Sequence record: SRR22947727_488
Strand: one strand, 5' to 3'
DNA: 30,439 bases
Shown here: in pieces, positions 11,008 through 30,439 of the stretch
Layout: every line of letters begins with the position of its first letter
Position numbering within the stretch: position 1 is the first letter of the stretch
The notes under the pieces: generated by a model
Told to the model about the DNA's origin: nothing
Databases searched by the model: none
Seen by the model: the letters and a program-made list of their open reading frames with translations, nothing else
Position numbers and translations under genes: made by a program

Positions 11008-11997
11008 ATGAAAGATATTTCTTTAGTAAAAATATTACCTATGGAACCTAAGGTTCCATTCATTAACTTACGTTTTTTTGCTGCCATACTTTCCTTCATT
11101 GCTTTAATAATATCAGTATATTTATTTAGTTCTAAAGGATTAAATTATGGCATTGATTTTACTGGCGGTACCGTAATTGAAATAGATACAGGTGGCGAAC
11201 CAGACCTTGCAAAAATAAGAACAGTTATTAACGAAGCTGGTTTTCCTGGCGCGACTGTTCAAGGTATAGCTCCTGATGCTTCAAGCACTCTAAATCACAA
11301 TTATGTAAGAATTGGAATACCTCTGCAACAAGAGACAGAAGAAACAGGGGCTGCAGCACAACAGATAGCCATGAAGACAGCTCAAGATGCATTAATTGAT
11401 AATATCGAAGGGTTTAAAGGTTCGGAAAGCATAAGAAGTCAAGAAGCAGTTGGATCTGCTGTGTCAGGTGAGCTTCGACAAAAAGGAATTTTAGCAGTAG
11501 CATTAGCTCTTTTAATGGTTTTGGGTTATATCTGGTTTCGCTTTGAGTGGCAGTTTGGGCTAGGTGCTGTTTTTGCACTTTTTCATGATGTTATCCTAAC
11601 TATTGGTGTTTTTTCATTAACTCAGATTGAGTTCAATTTATCAATAATAGCCGCTATACTAACAATTGTTGGGTATTCACTGAATGATACGGTAATAGTT
11701 TATGATAGAATTAGAGAGAATTTACGTAAGTATAAAAAAATGCCATTGCCTGAGGTCTTAAATCTCTCAATCAATGACACTTTATCACGAACAATACTGA
11801 CTTCATTCACTACTCTTTTGGCCTTATTCGCTTTGTATACACTTGGTGGAGCTGGACTTAGAGGATTTTCGTTTGCAATGATTTGGGGAGTTTTTGTAGG
11901 TACATATTCATCTATATTTGTGGCTTCACCCTTATTACTTCTTTTGAAATTGAAACGAGGCGTTAATACAGGAAATGCAGAAGGTAACAATAATTAA
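11008..11997 (+). CDS. secF: Protein translocase subunit SecF
   Basis: GLNYGIDFTGG, YIWFRFEWQF, HDV, IAAILTIVGYSLNDTVIVYDRIREN, GTYSSIFVASP. Confidence 0.98.
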   Translation: MKDISLVKILPMEPKVPFINLRFFAAILSFIALIISVYLFSSKGLNYGIDFTGGTVIEIDTGGEPDLAKIRTVINEAGFPGATVQGIAPDASSTLNHNYVRIGIPLQQETEETGAAAQQIAMKTAQDALIDNIEGFKGSESIRSQEAVGSAVSGELRQKGILAVALALLMVLGYIWFRFEWQFGLGAVFALFHDVILTIGVFSLTQIEFNLSIIAAILTIVGYSLNDTVIVYDRIRENLRKYKKMPLPEVLNLSINDTLSRTILTSFTTLLALFALYTLGGAGLRGFSFAMIWGVFVGTYSSIFVASPLLLLLKLKRGVNTGNAEGNNN

Positions 11998-12287
11998 AGG
12001 CGACGAAATCCTTTTGCCCCAAAGGAACAAATAGCCTGTCCTATAATTCTTTCTTTCTCCACCATACCAATTAGATAAGATGGTATGGACAAGCTTAAAT
12101 TGTCACCTTCAAACAAATACTTATTGTTTTTTTGGCCGCAAAGTCGTTTAACTATTACCCCAAGGTCAATATGATCAATCACATAAATAAATCCCAGCTT
12201 TAAAAGATGAGGTTTTTTAGATAATAGATATTCCCCATCACTAAGTGTGGGGCTCATTGAACCCCCTGAAATTTTCATTAGCCTCAT
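11994..12287 (-). CDS. sodX: Nickel-type superoxide dismutase maturation protease (S26/S24 family)
   Basis: G-x-SMSPTL..G with catalytic Ser, IVKR with catalytic Lys, GDN motif; 5 nt downstream of sodN. Confidence 0.88.
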   Translation of the reverse strand: MRLMKISGGSMSPTLSDGEYLLSKKPHLLKLGFIYVIDHIDLGVIVKRLCGQKNNKYLFEGDNLSLSIPSYLIGMVEKERIIGQAICSFGAKGFRRL

Positions 12288-12292
12288 ATTAA

Positions 12293-12784
12293 TTATAAAT
12301 CAGGTATTATTACTTCAATATTAGGCGCATATGGTGTTGAGGCTCTTTTAACTTTTACACCTTTCATATCCCAAAAAATTTCTGAGAATTGGTTGCATAA
12401 CTCAACAAGTTTTTCACCATCTTCTCTATGTAAGTCTTGCTTGCAAGCAGATCCAGCTATCATTATTTTATGTGCTAGCTCATGAACTTCTGGATGTTTT
12501 TCTAAGTGAGCGCCTTTCATGAAGTCGCCCCATATAACGCGCACTTCGTGTTTAACAAGTTCAGCTTGTTTTTCTTTTTCTGCAGTATTTCTACTAACTT
12601 GCATGGCGAACGATGTCTGACTTAAGTCTCTGTCTTTAAGACTTAATAAAATATCGATCTGTCTTAAAGTTGAAACAGCGTGATACATAACTGTTCTTGC
12701 ATCATATATTCCACAGGGTATGTCACAATGAGCAGAAACAGCGTCTAAAGAATTATTAAATCCTGAAATTAAATTATTAAACAT
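12293..12784 (-). CDS. sodN: Nickel superoxide dismutase precursor
   Basis: 18-aa leader followed by the nickel hook HCDIPCGIYD; KE..AE.VK.EVRVIWGD, CKQ, FSEIFW motifs. Confidence 0.97.
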   Translation of the reverse strand: MFNNLISGFNNSLDAVSAHCDIPCGIYDARTVMYHAVSTLRQIDILLSLKDRDLSQTSFAMQVSRNTAEKEKQAELVKHEVRVIWGDFMKGAHLEKHPEVHELAHKIMIAGSACKQDLHREDGEKLVELCNQFSEIFWDMKGVKVKRASTPYAPNIEVIIPDL

Positions 12785-12790
12785 TTTTAA

Positions 12791-12979
12791 TTAAGCCTTT
12801 TTTTTGTATGATTTGTAAATTGTAAAGCAAACTGTAGCTAAGCCTATTATAACTAAACCTATCTCGAATTGGGATAAATTATCTACTACTGCAGATAGAG
12901 TTTCTTCATGGTGTGCCATAGCCGGTGCAGTAACACCAAATGACGCTAGAGTTGCTGTAATATACTTGTTAAATTTCAT
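12791..12979 (-). CDS. Small (62 aa) exported, membrane-anchored protein of unknown function; first gene of the sodN operon
   Basis: ATG 12979 has an AAGGA RBS; signal-peptide-like MKFNKYITATLASFGVTAPAMA followed by HHEE; C-terminal hydrophobic helix and KSYKKKA; stop is 6 nt before the sodN start. Confidence 0.75.
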   Translation of the reverse strand: MKFNKYITATLASFGVTAPAMAHHEETLSAVVDNLSQFEIGLVIIGLATVCFTIYKSYKKKA

Positions 12980-12993
12980 ATTCTGTTCCTTAT

Positions 12994-13032
12994 GATAATT
13001 ATTTATCTTAACTGTATGATCAACTTGTGCAA
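12994..13032 (-). promoter_or_regulatory. Putative sigma70 promoter (TTGCAC-N16-TAAGAT) of the sodN operon with an overlapping GATAA-N4-TTATC inverted repeat
   Basis: -35 at 13032-13027, -10 at 13010-13005 on the minus strand; inverted repeat at 12994-13007. Confidence 0.45.
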
Positions 13033-13078
13033 GAAGTCCTATCAATTAATACGGGGAAATGCAAAAAAAGTTTAAAAT

Positions 13079-21766: not shown

Positions 21767-22936
21767 TTAACTCCATTTTTCTCTCAAAAACTTTTCTTTT
21801 TTGGGATCTATATTAACATTATTAATATCATTATTCGCCCATTCCATTACTCTTTTATCCATTATCGCAAACCAAAGAGGTGGAATAAAAGCTAACGCGA
21901 AGCACCCACCATAGCCGGTTGGAAGAGAGGGAACATTTTCATAGTCCCTAAGTACTTGATATGCGCGCATCGGGTAAGCGTGATGGTCTGAGTGTCTTTG
22001 GAGGTGAAATGATAGAAGATTCGAATATGTATGATTTGTGTTCCAGCTATGTTTAGGTTGACAGCGCTCATATTTACCATTCGGTAATTTTTTACGCATT
22101 AATCCGTAATGTTCTATATAATTTGCCTGCGTTAGTGTTAACCAAGCTAAAAAATGATGTGGAATAAGAAATAATAAGATTGTAGGGTCAAATATGTATG
22201 CAAAAACAAATAAGGATACAGTGGTAACTGCGTAAACTTGTAAAAGATCATTTTCTAAAGACCAGAAATTTTTTCCTGAATTTTTTAATCTTTTTTTCTC
22301 AAAATCTATACCTCTTTTGAATGTTCCAGAAAGCTCACGGATTAAAAATGCATAAAAACTTTCTCCCATTCTCGAACTAGCAGGGTCCTCTGGTGTTGCC
22401 ACCCAAGTATGGTGGCCTTTGTTATGCTCTATATTGAAGTGACCGTATCCCATTATCATGTTACCAATTTTAGCTGAAAACCTATCAAGTTTATTTGATT
22501 TGTGGCCTAATTCGTGCGTCATAACCATTACTCCACCGCTATTAGCGCCTACACCAATAATTAATGCCAGGACAGACCACCACGGCAACTGTTGAGTTCC
22601 TACAAATGCAACAAAGCTGATATAGAGTATAATTGAAACTAGTATTAAAGAGTGAACAATGAACCTGTAGTAATTATCTGCCATCATAGCATTAACAACT
22701 TCTTCCGGAGGATTATGCTCATCTTCACCTATTATAAAGTCCATGATAGGCGGGAAAATATAGAAATATAACATCGGTATCAGTGTAAAAATTGGATTTT
22801 TGTCAAACGTAAAAAACAAATATATTGAAAGCCATGACATTAAAGGGGATACCAAAATTACCCAATATAGATGGCGCTTTTTGTCAGTGTAGATGATTTC
22901 ACTGCCATGTTCTGAAAATCCTGTGAAAGTCTTCAT
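21767..22936 (-). CDS. alkB: Alkane 1-monooxygenase (integral-membrane diiron hydroxylase)
   Basis: All AlkB motifs present: HELGH, EHNKGHH, ATPEDPASSR, NYIEHYGL, LQRHSDHHA; N-terminal YTDKKRHLY and TM helices. Confidence 0.96.
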   Translation of the reverse strand: MKTFTGFSEHGSEIIYTDKKRHLYWVILVSPLMSWLSIYLFFTFDKNPIFTLIPMLYFYIFPPIMDFIIGEDEHNPPEEVVNAMMADNYYRFIVHSLILVSIILYISFVAFVGTQQLPWWSVLALIIGVGANSGGVMVMTHELGHKSNKLDRFSAKIGNMIMGYGHFNIEHNKGHHTWVATPEDPASSRMGESFYAFLIRELSGTFKRGIDFEKKRLKNSGKNFWSLENDLLQVYAVTTVSLFVFAYIFDPTILLFLIPHHFLAWLTLTQANYIEHYGLMRKKLPNGKYERCQPKHSWNTNHTYSNLLSFHLQRHSDHHAYPMRAYQVLRDYENVPSLPTGYGGCFALAFIPPLWFAIMDKRVMEWANNDINNVNIDPKKEKFLREKWS

Positions 22937-23310
22937 GGTTGTTCCTCATATTTTTCTGTAAACGGAACGCAAAGGTCTCGCATAGGGCTCAGTGCTGATA
23001 AAATAAATTCCAATCTTTCAACTATATATGGACCATTAATATCATGAAATACTTGTCGCCCAATTTTTTTTGAGGTTGTTATTCCTGCTTTTTCTAGGTT
23101 TAGTAGATGCCTAGAAATAACAGAACGGTCTTGAGATAAATCTTTTGCTACAGTCGTGACATCGCAAACGCCAGTAGAAACTAATTTTTTTATAATTTGT
23201 ACGCGTGTGGGATCGGTTAACGCTTTTAAAAAAACTGTATCCAGTACTTCAATTATTGTATTTGAAATTGACTTTATTTCAAGTTCTTGAGAATTCTTAT
23301 TTATTATCAT
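22933..23310 (-). CDS. ArsR/SmtB-family transcriptional regulator
   Basis: FLKALTDPTRVQIIKKL...SQDRSVISRHL..LEKAGI....GRQV winged HTH; ATG 23310 preferred because the upstream ATG at 23328 lies inside the operator repeat; ATGA overlap with alkB. Confidence 0.9.
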   Translation of the reverse strand: MIINKNSQELEIKSISNTIIEVLDTVFLKALTDPTRVQIIKKLVSTGVCDVTTVAKDLSQDRSVISRHLLNLEKAGITTSKKIGRQVFHDINGPYIVERLEFILSALSPMRDLCVPFTEKYEEQP

Positions 23311-23340
23311 ATGTGTATGTATGCACACATATGCACATAT
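23308..23340. promoter_or_regulatory. Inverted/tandem repeat operator, probable ArsR autoregulatory site
   Basis: CATATGTGT-N8-ACACATATG (23308-23333) plus the tandem 10-mer ATGCACACAT/ATGCACATAT (23321-23340). Confidence 0.7.
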
Positions 23341-23352
23341 TTCAATTATTTT

Positions 23353-24480
23353 TTAATCTAATGCCTCAGTTTTATATATTTGAATATTTAAACCTCCATT
23401 CGAAACATTTAAATTAGAGGAAACAAAAGGTAAATTAGTGGATTGTGCTAATCCGTTATCAGAGGTAACCATACCAACCCTCCATCCAAAAAATTCATTT
23501 CTCATTTTTTCACCAAATGTTCTGTATAATGAGAAGAGATCTTTTTTCTTACCTATCCTGGCGCCATATGGTGGATTTACTATAACCAAGCCTTCAGAAC
23601 CATCTGGTCTTTTTAATTTTTCAATATTTTGAGTATGAAAATTACAGATATCATCTAGACCAGCTCGTTTGGAGTTTTGATTAGAGTATTCTATTACATT
23701 GTGATTTCTATCAAAGCCCATAAACGAAAATGCTGAAGGTTTATTTTGCCATTTTTTCTTTAAATTACTAAACAATTTTTCATCGTAACTAATGAGGTTT
23801 TGAAAATTAAATTTCCTATTTCTTCCTGGCATTAGATTGCGTGATATTCCTGCGGCCTCTATGACAAATGTACCAGAGCCACACATTGGGTCCACCACAG
23901 GTTCGTTTCCTGAATATCCACAAAAATTCAATGCTAAAGATGCAATATTTTCTCGAATTGGAGCTTTACCCATTGCTAATTTATAGCCGCGTTTATACAG
24001 CCCGTCGCCAGAAGTATCGATAGATATAATAACATTATTATCGATTATTCTTATTTTCAATACAATATCGGCGGACGAAATCGATTGTGCCACTGTGTTA
24101 CCAAGTTCTTCAGAAATAGCTCTTTCTATTCTTTCTACAGCTGCTCCAGCATGGTATATTTTGTTTTTTCTATTTGTAACTACTTCTGCTTTCACACTCA
24201 TTCCCTGAGGTATTGTGTTACGCCATGGAAACCTTCTTGCACGTTTATCAAGTTGAGCTAAATGAAATGCACGAAATTCACCAATACGAGCTAATACTTT
24301 TGTTGCCCCCCTTAAATATAAGTTCATTTTCCAAACATCCATCCAGTCACCCGTTATCGATACTCCTCCTACATGTAAATTTGATTCACTATAACCAAAT
24401 TTTCTGACCTCCTCATGGAGTAAATACTCCAACCCAAGCTGAGTAGTTATAAATATTTCAAATTTGTCTGTTTGTTTCAT
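23353..24480 (-). CDS. THUMP-domain class I SAM-dependent RNA methyltransferase (stand-alone RlmL-like)
   Basis: GLE..L..E, SIDTSG..LYKRGYK....KAPIRENIA, DPMCGSGTFVIEAA, VNPPYG.RIG. Confidence 0.92.
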   Translation of the reverse strand: MKQTDKFEIFITTQLGLEYLLHEEVRKFGYSESNLHVGGVSITGDWMDVWKMNLYLRGATKVLARIGEFRAFHLAQLDKRARRFPWRNTIPQGMSVKAEVVTNRKNKIYHAGAAVERIERAISEELGNTVAQSISSADIVLKIRIIDNNVIISIDTSGDGLYKRGYKLAMGKAPIRENIASLALNFCGYSGNEPVVDPMCGSGTFVIEAAGISRNLMPGRNRKFNFQNLISYDEKLFSNLKKKWQNKPSAFSFMGFDRNHNVIEYSNQNSKRAGLDDICNFHTQNIEKLKRPDGSEGLVIVNPPYGARIGKKKDLFSLYRTFGEKMRNEFFGWRVGMVTSDNGLAQSTNLPFVSSNLNVSNGGLNIQIYKTEALD

Positions 24481-24582
24481 CTTGAAACATATATGCTTAT
24501 ATAAACGTAATAGTAAGTAGATTTAATTTTATTATAAAAAAAATTCTATTTAACTGATGCGTAACTTTTAAAAGGATGCAAA

Positions 24583-26352
24583 ATGGGCAAAAAACCTATC
24601 ACTGATATGAAAGCATTTAGCGCCTCAAAAAATATTAAAAACCAATCATTTGTTTATAATGGCAGTATTTTCACTGAAGACTTAGTGGCTGCAATAATTG
24701 TGACTATTTTATTGGTTCCACAATCATTGGCTTACGCATTATTAGCGGGATTGCCTCCACAAGTTGGAATATATGTGTCAATTTTTCCTTTATTAGCATA
24801 TGCTCTTTTAGGTTCTTCTAAGTACTTAAACGTTGGTCCTACAGCAGTTATCTCTATTATGACTGCAGCATCAATATCGATATTGCCTGAAAGTGAACGT
24901 CTTATTAGCGCTGCAGCATTGGGGGTTATGACTGGAAGTATATTATTAGTTGCGTGGCTATTTAAGGCAGGATTTATAATGAACTTTGTGTCTCGCCCTG
25001 TCGTTTCGGCTTACATTACTGGTGCCGCAATTCTAATCATAATAAGCCAGCTAAAGCATATTTTTGGTGTAAATATCTATAGTAGCACTGCATTAAGCAT
25101 GCTTAGTGAATTACTTAAAAACATGTATAATATAAATGAGTATTCAATGTTAATTGGCATTTGTGCTATTTCTTTACTTATAATTATTAACCGTTATTTG
25201 GCATATAGTTTAATTAGGCTTAGAATAAAAAGCCGGCGAGCAAAACTAGTTGGTAGAATAGCGCCAATATTAATTGTTGCTATTTTTATTATGTTTAGTT
25301 CATTTTATAATTTTTCAAATACTTTCGATCTTAATGTGGTGGGAGAGATACCAAAAGGCTTGCCACCTTTTAGTATTCCGGTTCTGCCTTATTCATCATT
25401 ACAATCACTTGCGATGCCAGCAGTTGTTATAGCGATTGTAGCTTTTGTGGATAGCTGCTCCACAGCACAGGAATTAGCAGCCCGCTCCAGGAGTAGGGTG
25501 GATTCAAATAAAGAACTACTAAGCCTTGGCGCATCAAATTTAGTCGCAGGCATGACTGGTGGCTACCCTATTAACGGCAGCATGTCACGTTCAGCAGTAA
25601 ATTTTAATGCAGGTGGTAAAACAAGATTTGTAGGATTATTGGTTGCCATGATGATGGCTCTAACTGCAGTTTTCCTTACTCCAATACTTAAGGATTTGCC
25701 TTTAGCGGTTTTAGCAGCATTAATAATTGTCGCTTGCTTTAGTTTAGTTGACTTTAAAAACCTTTGGGAAACTTGGGTGTACAGCCGAGCTGATGGAATT
25801 ACTGCAATAGCAACATTTTCTTCAGTTTTAATTTTTGGAGTTCAGTGGGGTGTTTTAGTCGGTGTTATTCTTGCAATGTCTCTTCATATTAACTCAACTT
25901 TATTGCCGCATATGCCTCTTGTTGGTCGTTTTCCAGGAACAGAGCATTATAGAGATTCTGGCAGGTTTAATGTTGAAACTAATGAAATCATAAAAACATT
26001 ACGCGTTGATGAGAGTTTGTATTATGCAAATGCTAGATATCTTGAGGATAGAGTGGCCCAAGTAGTTGAAGAAAGCCCTGATCTTAAAGACTTGGTGCTA
26101 ATGTGCACTGCAGTAAATAGAATAGACGCAAGTGCGCTTTCAAGCCTGGAGGAAATAAATAAGCGTTTGAAAAGTGCGGAAATAAGACTTCATTTTTCTG
26201 ATATGCAAAGTCGTGTTAAAGAACGGTTATTTAGGTCAAATTTTTTGGATAAACTATCAGGTCAAATTTTTCTATCGCAGCATGAGGCTATGGAAGAGTT
26301 GGAGCCTGAGCCAGACTGGAATGTACTTTCTGACCATATAGATATACACTAA
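24583..26352 (+). CDS. SulP/SLC26-family inorganic anion transporter with STAS domain
   Basis: LVPQSLAYALLAGLPP..G.Y, GPTA, GSMSRSAVN..AG, STAS domain (LRVDESLYYANA...IDASAL). Confidence 0.95.
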   Translation: MGKKPITDMKAFSASKNIKNQSFVYNGSIFTEDLVAAIIVTILLVPQSLAYALLAGLPPQVGIYVSIFPLLAYALLGSSKYLNVGPTAVISIMTAASISILPESERLISAAALGVMTGSILLVAWLFKAGFIMNFVSRPVVSAYITGAAILIIISQLKHIFGVNIYSSTALSMLSELLKNMYNINEYSMLIGICAISLLIIINRYLAYSLIRLRIKSRRAKLVGRIAPILIVAIFIMFSSFYNFSNTFDLNVVGEIPKGLPPFSIPVLPYSSLQSLAMPAVVIAIVAFVDSCSTAQELAARSRSRVDSNKELLSLGASNLVAGMTGGYPINGSMSRSAVNFNAGGKTRFVGLLVAMMMALTAVFLTPILKDLPLAVLAALIIVACFSLVDFKNLWETWVYSRADGITAIATFSSVLIFGVQWGVLVGVILAMSLHINSTLLPHMPLVGRFPGTEHYRDSGRFNVETNEIIKTLRVDESLYYANARYLEDRVAQVVEESPDLKDLVLMCTAVNRIDASALSSLEEINKRLKSAEIRLHFSDMQSRVKERLFRSNFLDKLSGQIFLSQHEAMEELEPEPDWNVLSDHIDIH

Positions 26353-26454
26353 TTATAAAAATTTATTTACAGAAAGCTTATATTTCGTCTACGGTGGAAG
26401 AGAATTGCCTTGAGCCCAAATTTGGTTGCTCGGCTAATAAATGTGAGATTAATA

Positions 26455-27597
26455 ATGCCGGATAGAATATTATCCGCAGGCGTAAGTTTGGATAATGATG
26501 GTAAAGAAAAACCAACTAAGCCTCGTCGACGGAAAAACAGGTCTAATTCTTTAGGTAATAAGAGCCCCAAGAAAGATCACCCTTTATATGCTGCCATTGA
26601 TTTAGGTACTAATAATTGCCGTTTGCTAATCGCCCGTCCAGTGGATGAGGGGTTTAAGGTCATTGATAGCTACTCCAAAGTCGTAAGGTTGGGTGTAGGA
26701 CTGGAAAGTACAGGTTTGCTATCTAAGGAAAGCATAAATAATGCGGTTGATGCCCTGTATGTTTGCGCGAAAAAAATAAAAACTCACCGAGTCAAGCGCT
26801 GGAGATGTGTAGCCACAGAAGCTTGTAGAAAAGCCTTAAACGGAAAATATTTTTTGGACCGTGTAAAAAAAGAGACGGGTTTATCCCTTGAAATTATATC
26901 TCCCCGCGTAGAATCAAGGTTAGCTGTGATGGGATGCATAAATTTAATTGATACTACTAAAAATGTAGCTTTAGTTGTAGATATTGGAGGGGGCTCAACG
27001 GAATTAAGTTGGGTTGATGTGCGCCGCCTAAAAGATGAAAATCTATCGACAAAAATTTACAGGCCGCCTATCAGTGCATGGGCCTCACTTCCTATTGGCG
27101 TAGTTACCTTATCTGAAAGAATACCAGAATTAAATGATAGAGCCTTATGGTATGAAAATATGAAAACAGTTGTTCGAGATGAAATAAATAAGAGCAATTG
27201 TAAGAATAGATTTGTAAATATTTTTAATGAAGGAAAAGGACATATTATTGGCACTTCAGGAACTATTACTTCTCTCGCAGGTATCCATTTAAAACTTCCT
27301 TACTACCAACGCGATAAAGTTGATGGACTTTGGTTACGTACGAGTGATGCTATCAAAGTTTCAAGATATATGTCTTCTTTATCACCGTTGGAACGGGCAA
27401 AAGAGCCGTGTATAGGAGAGGAACGGGCAAATCTTTTGGTTGCTGGTTGTGCAATTACTGATGTTATATGTGAAATTTGGCCTAGTAAGATAATACGAGT
27501 TGCTGATAGGGGGCTTAGGGAGGGTATGCTTATGGGTTTAATGCAGCAAAAACAGAAAGTTACTATAGCTAATGGGTTGCAGTATGACCGATTATGA
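26455..27597 (+). CDS. Ppx/GppA-family phosphatase
   Basis: AAIDLGTNNCRLLIA, VATEACR.A.N, VDIGGGSTELSW, GTSGTIT, ADRGLREG; ATG 26455 preferred over TTG 26410. Confidence 0.94.
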   Translation: MPDRILSAGVSLDNDGKEKPTKPRRRKNRSNSLGNKSPKKDHPLYAAIDLGTNNCRLLIARPVDEGFKVIDSYSKVVRLGVGLESTGLLSKESINNAVDALYVCAKKIKTHRVKRWRCVATEACRKALNGKYFLDRVKKETGLSLEIISPRVESRLAVMGCINLIDTTKNVALVVDIGGGSTELSWVDVRRLKDENLSTKIYRPPISAWASLPIGVVTLSERIPELNDRALWYENMKTVVRDEINKSNCKNRFVNIFNEGKGHIIGTSGTITSLAGIHLKLPYYQRDKVDGLWLRTSDAIKVSRYMSSLSPLERAKEPCIGEERANLLVAGCAITDVICEIWPSKIIRVADRGLREGMLMGLMQQKQKVTIANGLQYDRL

Positions 27598-28330
27598 GCC
27601 TAAAAAGCGCATGTCTGGTGGTAAACCTGACACAGAAAAGCGAGAACGAAAGACTAAATCAATAGATGTAACAAATGCTACTAGAATGATGACTCGCAAG
27701 GTGAAAACTGCGCGAGGAAGAAAAATCTCATCAAAACTCTGGATTGAGCGTCAAATTAATGACCCATATGTGAAAGAAGCAAAAATAAAGGGATATAGAT
27801 CAAGAGCAGCTTTTAAATTGTTGGAATTAAATAAGAAATTTAATTTAATACAAAAAGATGCATTAGTTGTTGACCTTGGGTGCGCGCCGGGGGGTTGGGT
27901 TCAAATAGCTCTTAAACTTGGAGCTTATCGAGTTGTAGGTATTGATTTATTATCCGTTGAGCCAATTGGATCTGCAGACATGATTGAAATGGACTTTATG
28001 AATAAAGATGCCCCAGATATATTGAAGAAAAAACTAGGAAGACAGCCTGACATTGTACTTTCTGATTTGGCAGCGAATACTACAGGTCACAGACAGACAG
28101 ATCATTTAAAAACAGTTTCTCTTGTGGAGTCTGCGGCTGAATTTGCTATGGAAGTTCTTAAACCTGGTGGTTCTTTTGTAACTAAAGTTTTTCAAGGAGG
28201 GGCTGAAGAAAAATTATTAAATATACTCAAAAAATCTTTTAAAACTGTAAAACACGCTAAGCCAAAAAGTTCCAGATCAGGAAGCCCAGAAATGTATTTA
28301 GTGGCGAAAGGCTTCCTTATAAAAAAATAA
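27584..28330 (+). CDS. rlmE: 23S rRNA (uridine-2552-2'-O)-methyltransferase RlmE/FtsJ
   Basis: W..RQINDPYV, GYRSRAAFKL, VDLGCAPGGW, VLSDLA, K...SR..S.E.Y; start 27584 or 27572. Confidence 0.97.
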   Translation: MTDYEPKKRMSGGKPDTEKRERKTKSIDVTNATRMMTRKVKTARGRKISSKLWIERQINDPYVKEAKIKGYRSRAAFKLLELNKKFNLIQKDALVVDLGCAPGGWVQIALKLGAYRVVGIDLLSVEPIGSADMIEMDFMNKDAPDILKKKLGRQPDIVLSDLAANTTGHRQTDHLKTVSLVESAAEFAMEVLKPGGSFVTKVFQGGAEEKLLNILKKSFKTVKHAKPKSSRSGSPEMYLVAKGFLIKK

Positions 28331-28365
28331 GCACTGAAATAAAGCATAATTCAATTAACTTTCCC

Positions 28366-28406
28366 TTTGCATTTATTAGTTATCCCTGATAACTCCCGCT
28401 TGCAAA
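28366..28406. promoter_or_regulatory. Symmetric hyphenated palindrome over the putative guaB promoter
   Basis: TTTGCA-N6-AGTTATC-CCT-GATAACT-N6-TGCAAA; overlaps TTGCAT-N17-TAACTC; AGGAGG RBS follows. Confidence 0.55.
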
Positions 28407-28420
28407 AGTAGGAGGATCCC

Positions 28421-29878
28421 ATGGAGATTCGAGAAGGATTAACCTTTGATGACGTTCTTTTGCAACCGCGAGCATCGGAAATACTTCCAGCTGATGCGGT
28501 TTTAAAAACCAGATTGACTAAGTCTATAAGTATCAATGTGCCATTGATTTCCGCGGCTATGGATACTGTTACCGAGGCAAGCTTAGCAATTGCAATGGCG
28601 CAGACAGGCGGTATTGGTGTTATACATCGTAATTTATCAATTGCGGAACAAGCGGAAGAAGTTCGTAAAGTTAAACGATACGAAAGTGGCATGGTTGTAA
28701 ACCCTGTAACTATTTCACCTAATGCAACTCGTCGTCAATTAGGCGAAATTGGACAAAGATTAAATATATCTGGTATTCCTGTAGTGGAAGATGATGGAAA
28801 GCTGGTTGGTATAGTTACCAATCGAGATGTTAGATTTGCTGACGATCCTGATGAGTTAGTATCAAACTTAATGACAACAAATATAGTTACAGTAGAAGAA
28901 GGAGTGTCTGAGTCAGAAGCACGTACATTATTGCATAAGCATAGAATAGAACGTCTACTTGTTGTAGATGATAAATATAGATGCGTTGGATTAATTACTG
29001 TCAAAGATATGGATAAAGCACTTAGCCATCCTAATGCGTGCAAAGATAATAGAGGTCGTTTGAGAGTTGCTGCAGCATCTACTGTTGGTCAATCCGGTTA
29101 CGAAAGAGCAGTTGCCTTGATAGATGCTGGAGTTGATGCAGTCGTAATTGATACAGCACATGGGCACTCAAATAAAGTGATTGAAATAGTAAAGCGTTTA
29201 AAAACTGATTATCCGAAATCTCAAATCATAGCAGGTAACATTGCTACTGCTGAAGCAGCAGATGCTCTTATAAAAGCTGGTGCTGATGCTATAAAGGTGG
29301 GAATAGGACCTGGTTCCATATGCACAACAAGAATCGTCGCAGGAGTTGGAGTGCCTCAACTTACAGCTATAGGAGATGTTTGTAAAATTGCTCTTAAAGC
29401 AAGAATACCAGTTATAGCAGATGGAGGAATCAAATACTCTGGTGATATGGCTAAGGCTCTCGCAGCAGGTGCTGAATGTGTTATGGTTGGCTCTCTCTTA
29501 GCCGGTGCAGAAGAAACACCGGGAGAAGTATTTCTTTATCAGGGGCGTTCTTACAAGTCCTACAGAGGTATGGGTTCGGTATCTGCTATGGCCAGGGGAT
29601 CAGCTGATAGGTATTTTCAAAAAGAAGTGAGTGATAAGATGAAGCTAGTTCCAGAAGGTATTGAAGGCAGAATTGCTTTTAAGGGCCCTGTTGGCCCTAT
29701 ACTGCATCAGTTACTAGGTGGCATAAGGGCTGCTATGGGTTATACTGGTTCTAAAACAATAGAGGAACTTCATAAAAATGCTAAGTTTATAAAAATAACT
29801 AATGCAGGACTTCGTGAAAGCCATGTACATGACGTTCATATAGCAAGAGAAGCACCTAACTATTCGATGCCTGGGTAA
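28421..29878 (+). CDS. guaB: Inosine-5'-monophosphate dehydrogenase (with CBS pair)
   Basis: [57 protein letters not shown]. Confidence 0.99.
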
Positions 29879-29980
29879 TTATTAGATATTTCGTGTTGAT
29901 ACTGATGAATTCTTTAATGAAATTGATAATCAACTAAACAATATTTCGAAGTTTAAAGTATAAAAATTAAGAGAAAATAC

Positions 29981-30439
29981 ATGCTACTAGGTGGACGTAT
30001 TAAAGCTGCTATTGAGGTTCTAGATGATATTCTTAATCGCAAAACTCCTGCAACATTAGCTTTGCGTGATTGGGGTAAGTCCAATCGTTATGCAGGGTCA
30101 AAAGACAGGTCGGCAATCGGTAATTACGTTTATGATGCGTTACGTTGTAAAAGCTCAATAGAATTTAGGATGGATAACGGAGAACCACGTGCGTTAATCC
30201 TTGGTTCAGTTGTATTTATTGGCAAACGAACGGCTGAGGAGTTGATGGAAGCGTTTAAAAATGAAAAATATGCCCCAGCACAGTTAAGTAAAAATGAAAT
30301 TTTAAAACTTTGTGGATCTATAGACCTTAATGATGCACCTGATTGGGTTAAAGCTGATATTCCAGAATGGATATGGCCAGCGTTTGAAAATAATTTCTCT
30401 GATAATTCCATAGAGGAAGGACACTTTTTGACTAAGCGT
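29981..30439 (+). CDS. 5' part of an RsmB/NOP-family RNA methyltransferase (truncated by the window end; absent from the ORF track)
   Basis: Open from ATG 29981 to the window end: MLLGGRIKAAIEVLDDI...LALRDWGKSNRYAGSKDRSAIGNYVYDALR...ADIPEW; this gene typically follows guaB in Alphaproteobacteria. Confidence 0.88.
   Translation, partial: MLLGGRIKAAIEVLDDILNRKTPATLALRDWGKSNRYAGSKDRSAIGNYVYDALRCKSSIEFRMDNGEPRALILGSVVFIGKRTAEELMEAFKNEKYAPAQLSKNEILKLCGSIDLNDAPDWVKADIPEWIWPAFENNFSDNSIEEGHFLTKR

Follow-up and report, generated by a model that had tools for sequence, protein, structure and literature searches.

A widespread family of small His-tipped membrane proteins encoded upstream of sodN in marine Proteobacteria, and a probable role in nickel capture for Ni superoxide dismutase

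That a histidine exposed by signal-peptide cleavage can serve nickel or cobalt uptake is a principle already known from HupE/UreJ permeases and from anglerases. The CbiM/NikM component of energy-coupling factor (ECF) transporters binds nickel or cobalt through its free N-terminal amine and the His in second position. Mature HupE/UreJ proteins have six transmembrane helices (PMC7689651, PMC4284471), and HPXXGXDH in the first of them (TM1) is the family signature (PMC7689651). In anglerases, N-terminal His domains fused to HupE/UreJ-2 bind metal and have been proposed to feed the permease; in Ang-1 and Ang-2, the His exposed by cleavage at the outer face of the inner membrane is proposed to "fish" metal ions (PMC12537917). 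Marine cyanobacteria pair sodN and sodX with the gene for a membrane permease, SodT, which is proposed to provide nickel to SodN (PMC4284471). In the papers searched, no nickel-supply partner is given for proteobacterial sodN clusters. Here we describe the first gene of the Ni superoxide dismutase (NiSOD) cluster in a 30,439-nucleotide (nt) stretch of DNA from sequence record SRR22947727_488, hereafter the window. Its 62-amino-acid (aa) product is one of a family of micro-proteins, linked to sodN and as yet without a name, that is widespread in marine Proteobacteria, and we put at roughly 55% the probability that it is a membrane-tethered periplasmic peptide that captures Ni(II) and supplies NiSOD.

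Every landmark that a sequence-only reading of the window had described is present (Table 1): a ribosome-binding site ahead of the ATG at 12979, A-M-A|H-H-E-E, a C-terminal hydrophobic helix, the tail KSYKKKA, a 6-nt gap to sodN and, in SodN itself, the site VSA|HCD. The signal peptide is composed of the n-region MKFNK, a 14-residue h-region rich in Ala, Thr, Ser and Gly, and A-M-A at -3/-1; cleavage sites here and below are predictions, read from the letters by the -3/-1 rule. After the predicted cleavage the protein begins H-H-E-E and continues through a short acidic linker, with about 15 residues between the His tip and the helix, giving a mature peptide of about 40 residues and about 4.4 kDa (computed from the sequence). 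The equivalent Met is the start of the open reading frame (ORF) in two orthologs (L003 and L004), and no ORF of at least 40 aa overlaps the small ORF on the opposite strand. The gene stops 6 nt before the ATG of sodN (12784), and 5 nt separate sodN from sodX. The cluster has the hallmarks of NiSOD, an HCDxPCG hook after a pro-peptide (here VSA followed by HCDIPCG) and then an S26-type peptidase, the sodX-like product scoring 47 bits on TIGR02754, short of the cut-off of 63.25.

Small ORFs of this kind were recognized by a rule that asks for a product of 40-100 aa in which a signal peptide with small residues at -3/-1 leads to His at +1, a single helix and a basic tail. The window's protein has all of these features of the sodN-linked family, and the ORF at 12791-12979 was the one match in the six frames of the window. 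The rule and a profile of 49 proteins (A2) were then compared with the distribution of sodN. Among 61 related genomes, which include the window's own family, sodN was found over cut-off in 18, and the A2 profile found the small ORF at full length in exactly the 17 sodN carriers of the same family, always directly upstream and on the same strand. None was found in the other 44, comprising 43 genomes without a sodN match over cut-off and one sodN carrier from outside the family, G049, which has instead a 126-aa ORF of several helices starting A|H-P-G-H. Partial matches in G003 (contig C10), G045 and G060 covered only the signal-peptide part of frames of 485-739 aa and were not counted as family members.

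A similar association was found beyond these genomes. From 567 sodN loci (one genome per species) we surveyed the 80 nearest in SodN to the query, and in 57 of them the rule found its match no more than 250 nt upstream of sodN; these loci comprise 408 kb, and their six frames held only four other matches, of which two were copies of the same kind lying further upstream. Extending the reach and allowing a D-G-x-H start raised the count to 62, or 60 of 80 after removal of L136 and L140, where the matches were pieces of three-helix proteins. The architecture of A-x-A|His followed by a helix, for which a survey upstream of sodN had been proposed, thus recurs at most of these loci, and homologs do adjoin sodN. 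The carriers include Hellea, Litorimonas, Algimonas, Robiginitomaculum, Hyphomonadaceae, Maricaulaceae, Alteromonas, Alteromonadaceae, Psychrobacter, Pseudomonadales and unnamed Pseudomonadota. In a second, evenly drawn sample of 401 Pseudomonadota, sodN was present in five including this genome, and a look-alike ORF lay just upstream in three of the other four.

The 12791-12979 ORF is a real gene. Six orthologs from the same genus share a fixed order of trmFO, a divergent SQS_PSY-family gene, the small ORF, sodN, sodX and a convergent secF, and orthologous products show identities of 34-63%. Ratios of nonsynonymous to synonymous substitution rates (dN/dS, by Nei-Gojobori), a check proposed with the sequence-only reading, were well below 1: 0.23, 0.33 and 0.48 in three genome pairs with unsaturated dS, and 0.17-0.23 against the window. 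Since these values span 0.17-0.48, the small ORF is under purifying selection, about as strong as that on sodX (0.09-0.22 in the same genomes), and evolves much faster than sodN (0.03-0.07); in the same genome pairs the small protein is 60-63% identical and SodN 91-92%. That faster evolution, together with a stop codon 6 nt ahead of the sodN start that would permit translational coupling, is what might be expected if the frame had no protein function, being either a chance frame or an upstream frame that aids sodN translation. We consider this hardly credible, given dN/dS values well below 1, the retention of the architecture and His pair across distant Proteobacteria, and two loci (L124 and L150) in which another gene sits between the small ORF and sodN.

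The stretch is present in 13 RNA-labelled runs, which come from several studies. In one oligo-dT run (X5) a single 712-nt contig, 12301-13012, holds sodN, the small ORF and a 33-nt leader, the next contig starting at 13126; coming from one study, this contig is a hint of a transcript shared by the small ORF and sodN. The small ORF is probably on one transcript with sodN and sodX. Contigs of 2.6-8.7 kb from runs X1 and X2 cover the whole region and were not used as transcript evidence because they may derive from DNA, and two 151-nt contigs from run X13, which cover parts of sodN and sodX only, were also left aside. The weak promoter-like site just upstream of the X5 contig end (Table 1) is only a hint, such sites numbering six against 5.9 expected from shuffles, which is no enrichment. 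No terminator-like site was found in the promoter and terminator scan. Two variants were seen in the gene: T>A at 12882, which changes Asp33 in the linker to Val and is carried both by the assembly of the window's genome (G000) and by contigs from three of the RNA-labelled runs, and a synonymous T>C at 12800 in two RNA-labelled runs.

The family is easily overlooked. A homology search with the single sequence returned only two near-identical proteins, and a profile of seven orthologs (A1) joined 65 proteins of 42-98 aa to it. A profile search of a representative library gave eight matches and no convincing longer or fused form; a 710-aa match with eight hydrophobic stretches was set aside because it looks like helix composition. 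No Pfam or NCBIfam model matched any member at its cut-off, and below-cut-off matches to Pfam TrbC (29 of 53), YdjM (23 of 49) and Gram_pos_anchor were read as signal-peptide or helix composition or as a local T-H-S-L motif. In Hellea, Litorimonas, Algimonas, Psychrobacter and Marinomonas the public names are "hypothetical" or "uncharacterized", and an Atlas search led only to unnamed small clusters, at 0.88. Full-text literature searches and passages of PMC2667541, PMC4284471 and PMC12537917 gave no account of a small gene lying upstream of sodN, subscription-only papers on sodN diversity being outside reach; in the literature searched, the sodN-linked family has not previously been described.

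In an alignment of 53 diverse relatives (A4), conservation reaches 90% in four columns alone, those of both Ala of A-x-A and of the two His. The A-x-A|His-His motif singled out in the sequence-only reading is thus the best-conserved feature of the family, with H23 and H24 both at or above that level. In the form that most relatives have, the tip is H-x-G-x-H and the helix opens with H-W-L-S-S-P-x-H; variants of this form pair H-V-G-D-H with H-F-L-A-D-H, or start H-x-G-H-D-H in gammaproteobacteria. The window's form starts H-H-E, has no further His, and in the alignment lacks exactly the H-W-L-S-S-P segment. In a tree of SodN (FastTree, midpoint root, with support values not read and topologies not tested) the H-H-E forms of Hellea lie inside a clade dominated by the commoner form, and a second H-H-E group lies in a distant SodN clade, an arrangement suggestive of more than one origin for the H-H-E tip.

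HupE is one of the known proteins to which the family comes closest. In an even sample of classical HupE, 16 of 16 had His directly after an A-x-A-type site, the mature protein continuing H-T-G-x-G...G-F...H-P-x-x-G-x-D-H, and HupE/UreJ genes, like the small ORF, adjoin genes for nickel or cobalt enzymes. The predicted A-M-A|H-H site of the window's protein fits this HupE trait of an N-terminal His after the signal peptide. In most relatives the helix begins with a pair of His spaced seven residues apart, at the place that HPXXGXDH occupies in HupE; in their H-W-L-S-S-P-x-H both His stand at the HupE spacing, and the P, G and D are not kept. An hhalign comparison of the mature small family with mature HupE placed H1, H15 and H22 on H1, H16 and H23 of HupE (E 0.018, probability 2.6%). 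Forms of about 125 aa with three helices gave hhalign E-values of 2.2e-4 against the small family (probability 45%) and 0.0038 against HupE, and look like the first half of a HupE-type permease. At the three loci where they were found (Table 1) these forms replace the one-helix peptide; they start A|H-P-G-H (or H-L-P-Q), have H-x6-H in helix 1 and a later conserved F-G-L-E, and had no match in a Pfam search. Taken together, these likenesses are suggestive of descent of the family from the N-terminal part of a HupE-like protein.

The window's protein itself is not a member of HupE/UreJ by model score, helix count or signature motif. It gave no match to HupE_UreJ PF04955 (cut-off 23 bits), has one hydrophobic stretch after the signal peptide in a protein of 62 aa as opposed to six helices in about 190 aa, and lacks the HPXXGXDH helix motif altogether; among the relatives, PF04955 matched 2 of 49 and 2 of 53, below cut-off, with a best E of 0.0094. 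The suggestion that the gene encodes a drastically reduced HupE/UreJ finds some echo in the weak hhalign match of the commoner H-x6-H relatives and does not carry over to the window's protein, which is without that motif. Nor do the relatives point to a decaying fragment of a full-length hupE/ureJ, as they keep the small form under purifying selection.

This resemblance raises an alternative that we regard as unlikely, namely that the protein is a minimal HupE-like channel, a remnant of the signal peptide and first helix of HupE/UreJ whose copies assemble into a nickel pore and need no separate permease. It would account for the placement of the relatives' H-x6-H on H16 and H23 of HupE, in the helix that bears HPXXGXDH (PMC7689651), for the match of the three-helix forms (L009, L136 and L140) to both families, and for a match of the L148 small protein to positions 3-48 of the HupE_UreJ hidden Markov model (E 0.016). 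It would also fit two genomes, G020 and G027, that have the small ORF and no HupE/UreJ-2, and the nearest Pfam-bearing Atlas cluster carries HupE_UreJ on 16% of its members (score 0.79), which is a lead only. Against such a channel, the window's helix has no His or other conserved polar residue, all hhalign probabilities were below 50% over aligned stretches of 25-31 columns, and only the two of 53 members mentioned above touch the HupE_UreJ model. To our knowledge there is no single-helix metal channel of this kind, which we also count against it. A predicted complex of four copies of the mature peptide scored 0.02 and is uninformative either way. A channel is more plausible for the H-x6-H relatives than for the window's form.

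The rest of the genome is informative about where nickel may enter. Contig C88 of genome G000 covers only positions 1-22318 of the window, and 22319-30439 lie off that contig, with ordinary-looking ORFs and no N. In this 97%-complete genome there was no match for Fe/Mn superoxide dismutase (SOD), Cu/Zn SOD, urease alpha subunit, NicO or CbiM. Because neither of the other SOD types was matched, NiSOD may be the sole SOD of the organism; it may also be its sole nickel enzyme among those sought, a set without hydrogenase and glyoxalase. The window contains no HupE-like H-x5-DH and no PF13795 match, and the earlier statement that it lacks a HupE/UreJ/SodT permease holds for the window; it does not hold for the genome, which has a 323-aa HupE/UreJ-2 on contig C50, its sole HupE-family gene and the only match to PF13795. 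The signal peptide of this protein ends V-T-A and is followed by H-E-V, and as judged from its sequence it is the only candidate of a known family for nickel entry in G000. HupE-family matches were found in 15 of the 17 family genomes with sodN.

On our preferred interpretation, nickel capture, the 62-aa product would be exported by the Sec pathway and cut by signal peptidase I after A-M-A, leaving a single-pass inner-membrane peptide of about 40 residues with a free His-His-Glu N-terminus in the periplasm and its basic tail in the cytoplasm. Held at the membrane surface, the N-terminal amine and two imidazoles would then trap scarce Ni(II) from the periplasm and hand it to an inner-membrane entry route, for which HupE/UreJ-2 would be the only known-family candidate here. 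Export, cleavage, N-out/C-in topology, nickel binding, hand-off and partner are all inferred. Anglerases offer a precedent, and their architecture is present in this genome in the C50 HupE/UreJ-2; they differ in that the non-cytoplasmic Ang-1 domain is fused to HupE/UreJ-2, with a linker that begins near residue 175 (PMC12537917), whereas here a lone anchor helix is encoded by a stand-alone gene beside sodN. SodT is likewise encoded with sodN and sodX, and differs from the small protein in having six helices and belonging to the UreH family (PMC4284471), with no sequence relation seen between the two. The mature H-H-E start could offer the same donor atoms as CbiM/NikM, although CbiM/NikM is a multi-helix protein whose N-terminus folds into its own core.

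Several observations weigh against nickel capture. The window's form has only two His and is without the helix H-x6-H kept by most relatives, and because that motif is lost its function may differ from theirs. A few relatives (in L083, L084, G020 and P0052) start D-G-D-H in place of His, so His1 is not absolute. G020 and G027, both 99% complete and both with the small ORF and sodN, have no HupE/UreJ-2 match, which excludes an obligatory partnership with that permease. About a quarter of sodN loci have no such ORF (20 of 80, and one of four in the even sample); one of the 80, L125, has zero sequence upstream of sodN. The 80-locus set is biased to relatives of the query SodN, with Actinomycetota, Cyanobacteria and Bacteroidota outside the survey. 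The metal is a further difficulty: an N-terminal His binds Cu(II) too. The anglerase domain Ang-1 was characterized with copper (PMC12537917).

The affinity of an N-terminal His for copper, as with Ang-1 and Cu(II) (PMC12537917), points to another alternative, in which the protein is a periplasmic metal buffer or filter for Cu(II) or surplus Ni(II), or couples envelope metal status to SodN or SodX, and feeds no nickel to SodN. A strong linkage to sodN by itself gives no direction of function, and the cytoplasmic part, only seven residues long, agrees with a periplasmic role, though a tail so short offers little for signalling. We think this quite unlikely: supply accounts more simply for the way the small ORF strictly accompanies a cytoplasmic nickel enzyme in genomes that yielded no other family of nickel importers, and a look-alike family, DUF6732 (PF20506), is encoded beside a cobalt-inserting enzyme, which points to supply.

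In DUF6732 proteins a signal peptide is followed by A|H-x-G-H, a single helix and then a tail that is charged, and their genes adjoined that of the cobaltochelatase CbiX in three of three loci tested. They are linked to cobalt, not nickel. The DUF6732 model gave near-full-length matches to 13 of 53 family members, all below its cut-off of 27 bits (best 19.7 bits), and no match to the window's protein; because only the helix and tail aligned in hhalign of the small family against DUF6732 (E 4e-4), we claim a likeness of design and no homology. The comparison suggests that DUF6732 could be a cobalt counterpart of the sodN-linked peptides, and we found no mention of it in the literature searched. 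At L154-L157 (genomes G322, G159, G195 and G161) DUF6732 proteins with an acidic tail are encoded directly beside CbiX and other cobalamin genes.

A helix followed by a basic tail is also the layout of a sorting signal, and the protein might be the precursor of a released, His-tipped nickel carrier of about 15 residues, freed when a membrane protease removes the helix and tail. Sorting-domain models did give weak matches; LPXTG_anchor, for example, touched 12 of the 53 members with an E no better than 0.024, and one UniRef entry has an automatic LPXTG name. These matches are far below cut-off and typical of any helix with a basic tail, no above-cut-off match was found by the criteria for LPXTG, PEP-CTERM and similar signals, the HHE forms have no conserved motif ahead of the helix, and the loci inspected show no sortase-like gene next to the cluster. 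A released carrier is accordingly a highly improbable explanation.

Coordinates of the features discussed are collected in Table 1, together with those of neighboring genes. In G000 a gene with a PpiC-type rotamase domain precedes HupE/UreJ-2, and its stop overlaps the HupE/UreJ-2 start codon. In many Proteobacteria other than Hellea, a helical ORF of about 130-185 aa joins the small ORF and sodN, placed either between the two or immediately ahead of the small ORF; the window's cluster does not have this helical ORF, which may be a further unrecognized NiSOD accessory gene. Genome G054 encodes a SodN-like protein with a Sec-type signal peptide, A-F-A, directly before H-C-E-I-P-C-G, and because of that placement signal peptidase, not SodX, would expose the nickel hook; the protein matches PF09055 but reaches only 34 bits on TIGR02753. 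A signal-peptide-bearing SOD_Ni protein has also been used as a search seed (PMC12537917).

Table 1. Positions of the small ORF, its parts, its cluster and related features; plain numbers are window positions, and other positions are given by locus.
Feature	Position	Strand	Basis
62-aa small ORF, first gene of small ORF-sodN-sodX	12791..12979	-	sequence; stop codon 12793-12791 included; orthologs at this position in 16 other genomes of the family
Shine-Dalgarno-like AAGGA, 7 nt ahead of the ATG (12979)	12987..12991	-	sequence
Predicted Sec signal peptide, residues 1-22, end A-M-A	12914..12979	-	sequence; -3/-1 Ala at least 90% in 53 relatives
Predicted mature N-terminus His23-His24-Glu25	12905..12913	-	H23 and H24 at least 90% in A4, invariant in A1
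Single hydrophobic helix, residues 38-55, membrane anchor	12815..12868	-	sequence; all aligned relatives keep a hydrophobic stretch there
Basic C-terminal tail KSYKKKA, predicted cytoplasmic	12794..12814	-	positive-inside rule; K/R-rich tail family-wide
sodN, Ni superoxide dismutase precursor	12293..12784	-	TIGR02753 5.3e-39 (133.7 bits, cut-off 90); PF09055 1.1e-36
sodX-like S26/S24 peptidase, presumed SodN maturation protease	11994..12287	-	PF10502 1.4e-6 and PF00717 1.1e-5, both above cut-off
Weak promoter-like site TTGATA, 18 nt, GATCAT	13016..13045	-	9/12 matches; X5 contig end 13012 just downstream
HupE/UreJ-2 (G000, contig C50)	L008:1090-2061	+	PF13795 1.2e-40
PpiC-type rotamase-domain gene (G000)	L008:152-1090	+	
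Three-helix forms	L009:595-975, L136:1988-2392, L140:1949-2386		
Helical ORF of about 130-185 aa	L009:968-1489, L124:1287-1814, L129:1967-2476, L132:1928-2482		weak TPR or DUF2753 matches only
Helical ORF of about 130-185 aa, continued	L150:1974-2477, L189:780-1226, L192:2175-2645, L148:1828-2217		weak TPR or DUF2753 matches only
SodN-like protein, 158 aa (G054)	L027:1468-1944	-	PF09055 2.9e-25

Nickel is scarce in seawater, and in a cell that appears to have no SOD but NiSOD the way in which nickel is obtained therefore decides superoxide detoxification. We tentatively propose, as a possibility rather less likely than not, a "micro-HupE" class of dedicated transition-metal uptake components, about 40 residues long after maturation. 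In marine Proteobacteria NiSOD would by default receive its nickel from a single helix that bears a His claw at its N-terminus, acting alone as an oligomer or as the detachable "fishing line" of a permease. DUF6732 might be its sister class for cobalt beside CbiX, and the window's HHE form its most reduced member, a His-His-Glu tip on a tether. The small protein joins the small membrane proteins that automated annotation has left "hypothetical", and would add to the recently described principle that a cleavage-exposed His is the sign of a metal site (PMC12537917). Conserved, about 60-70 residues long and found alongside sodN in many marine lineages, such a micro-protein is a concrete and testable candidate for nickel supply, and its culturable carriers include Marinomonas, Psychrobacter, Alteromonas and Litorimonas.

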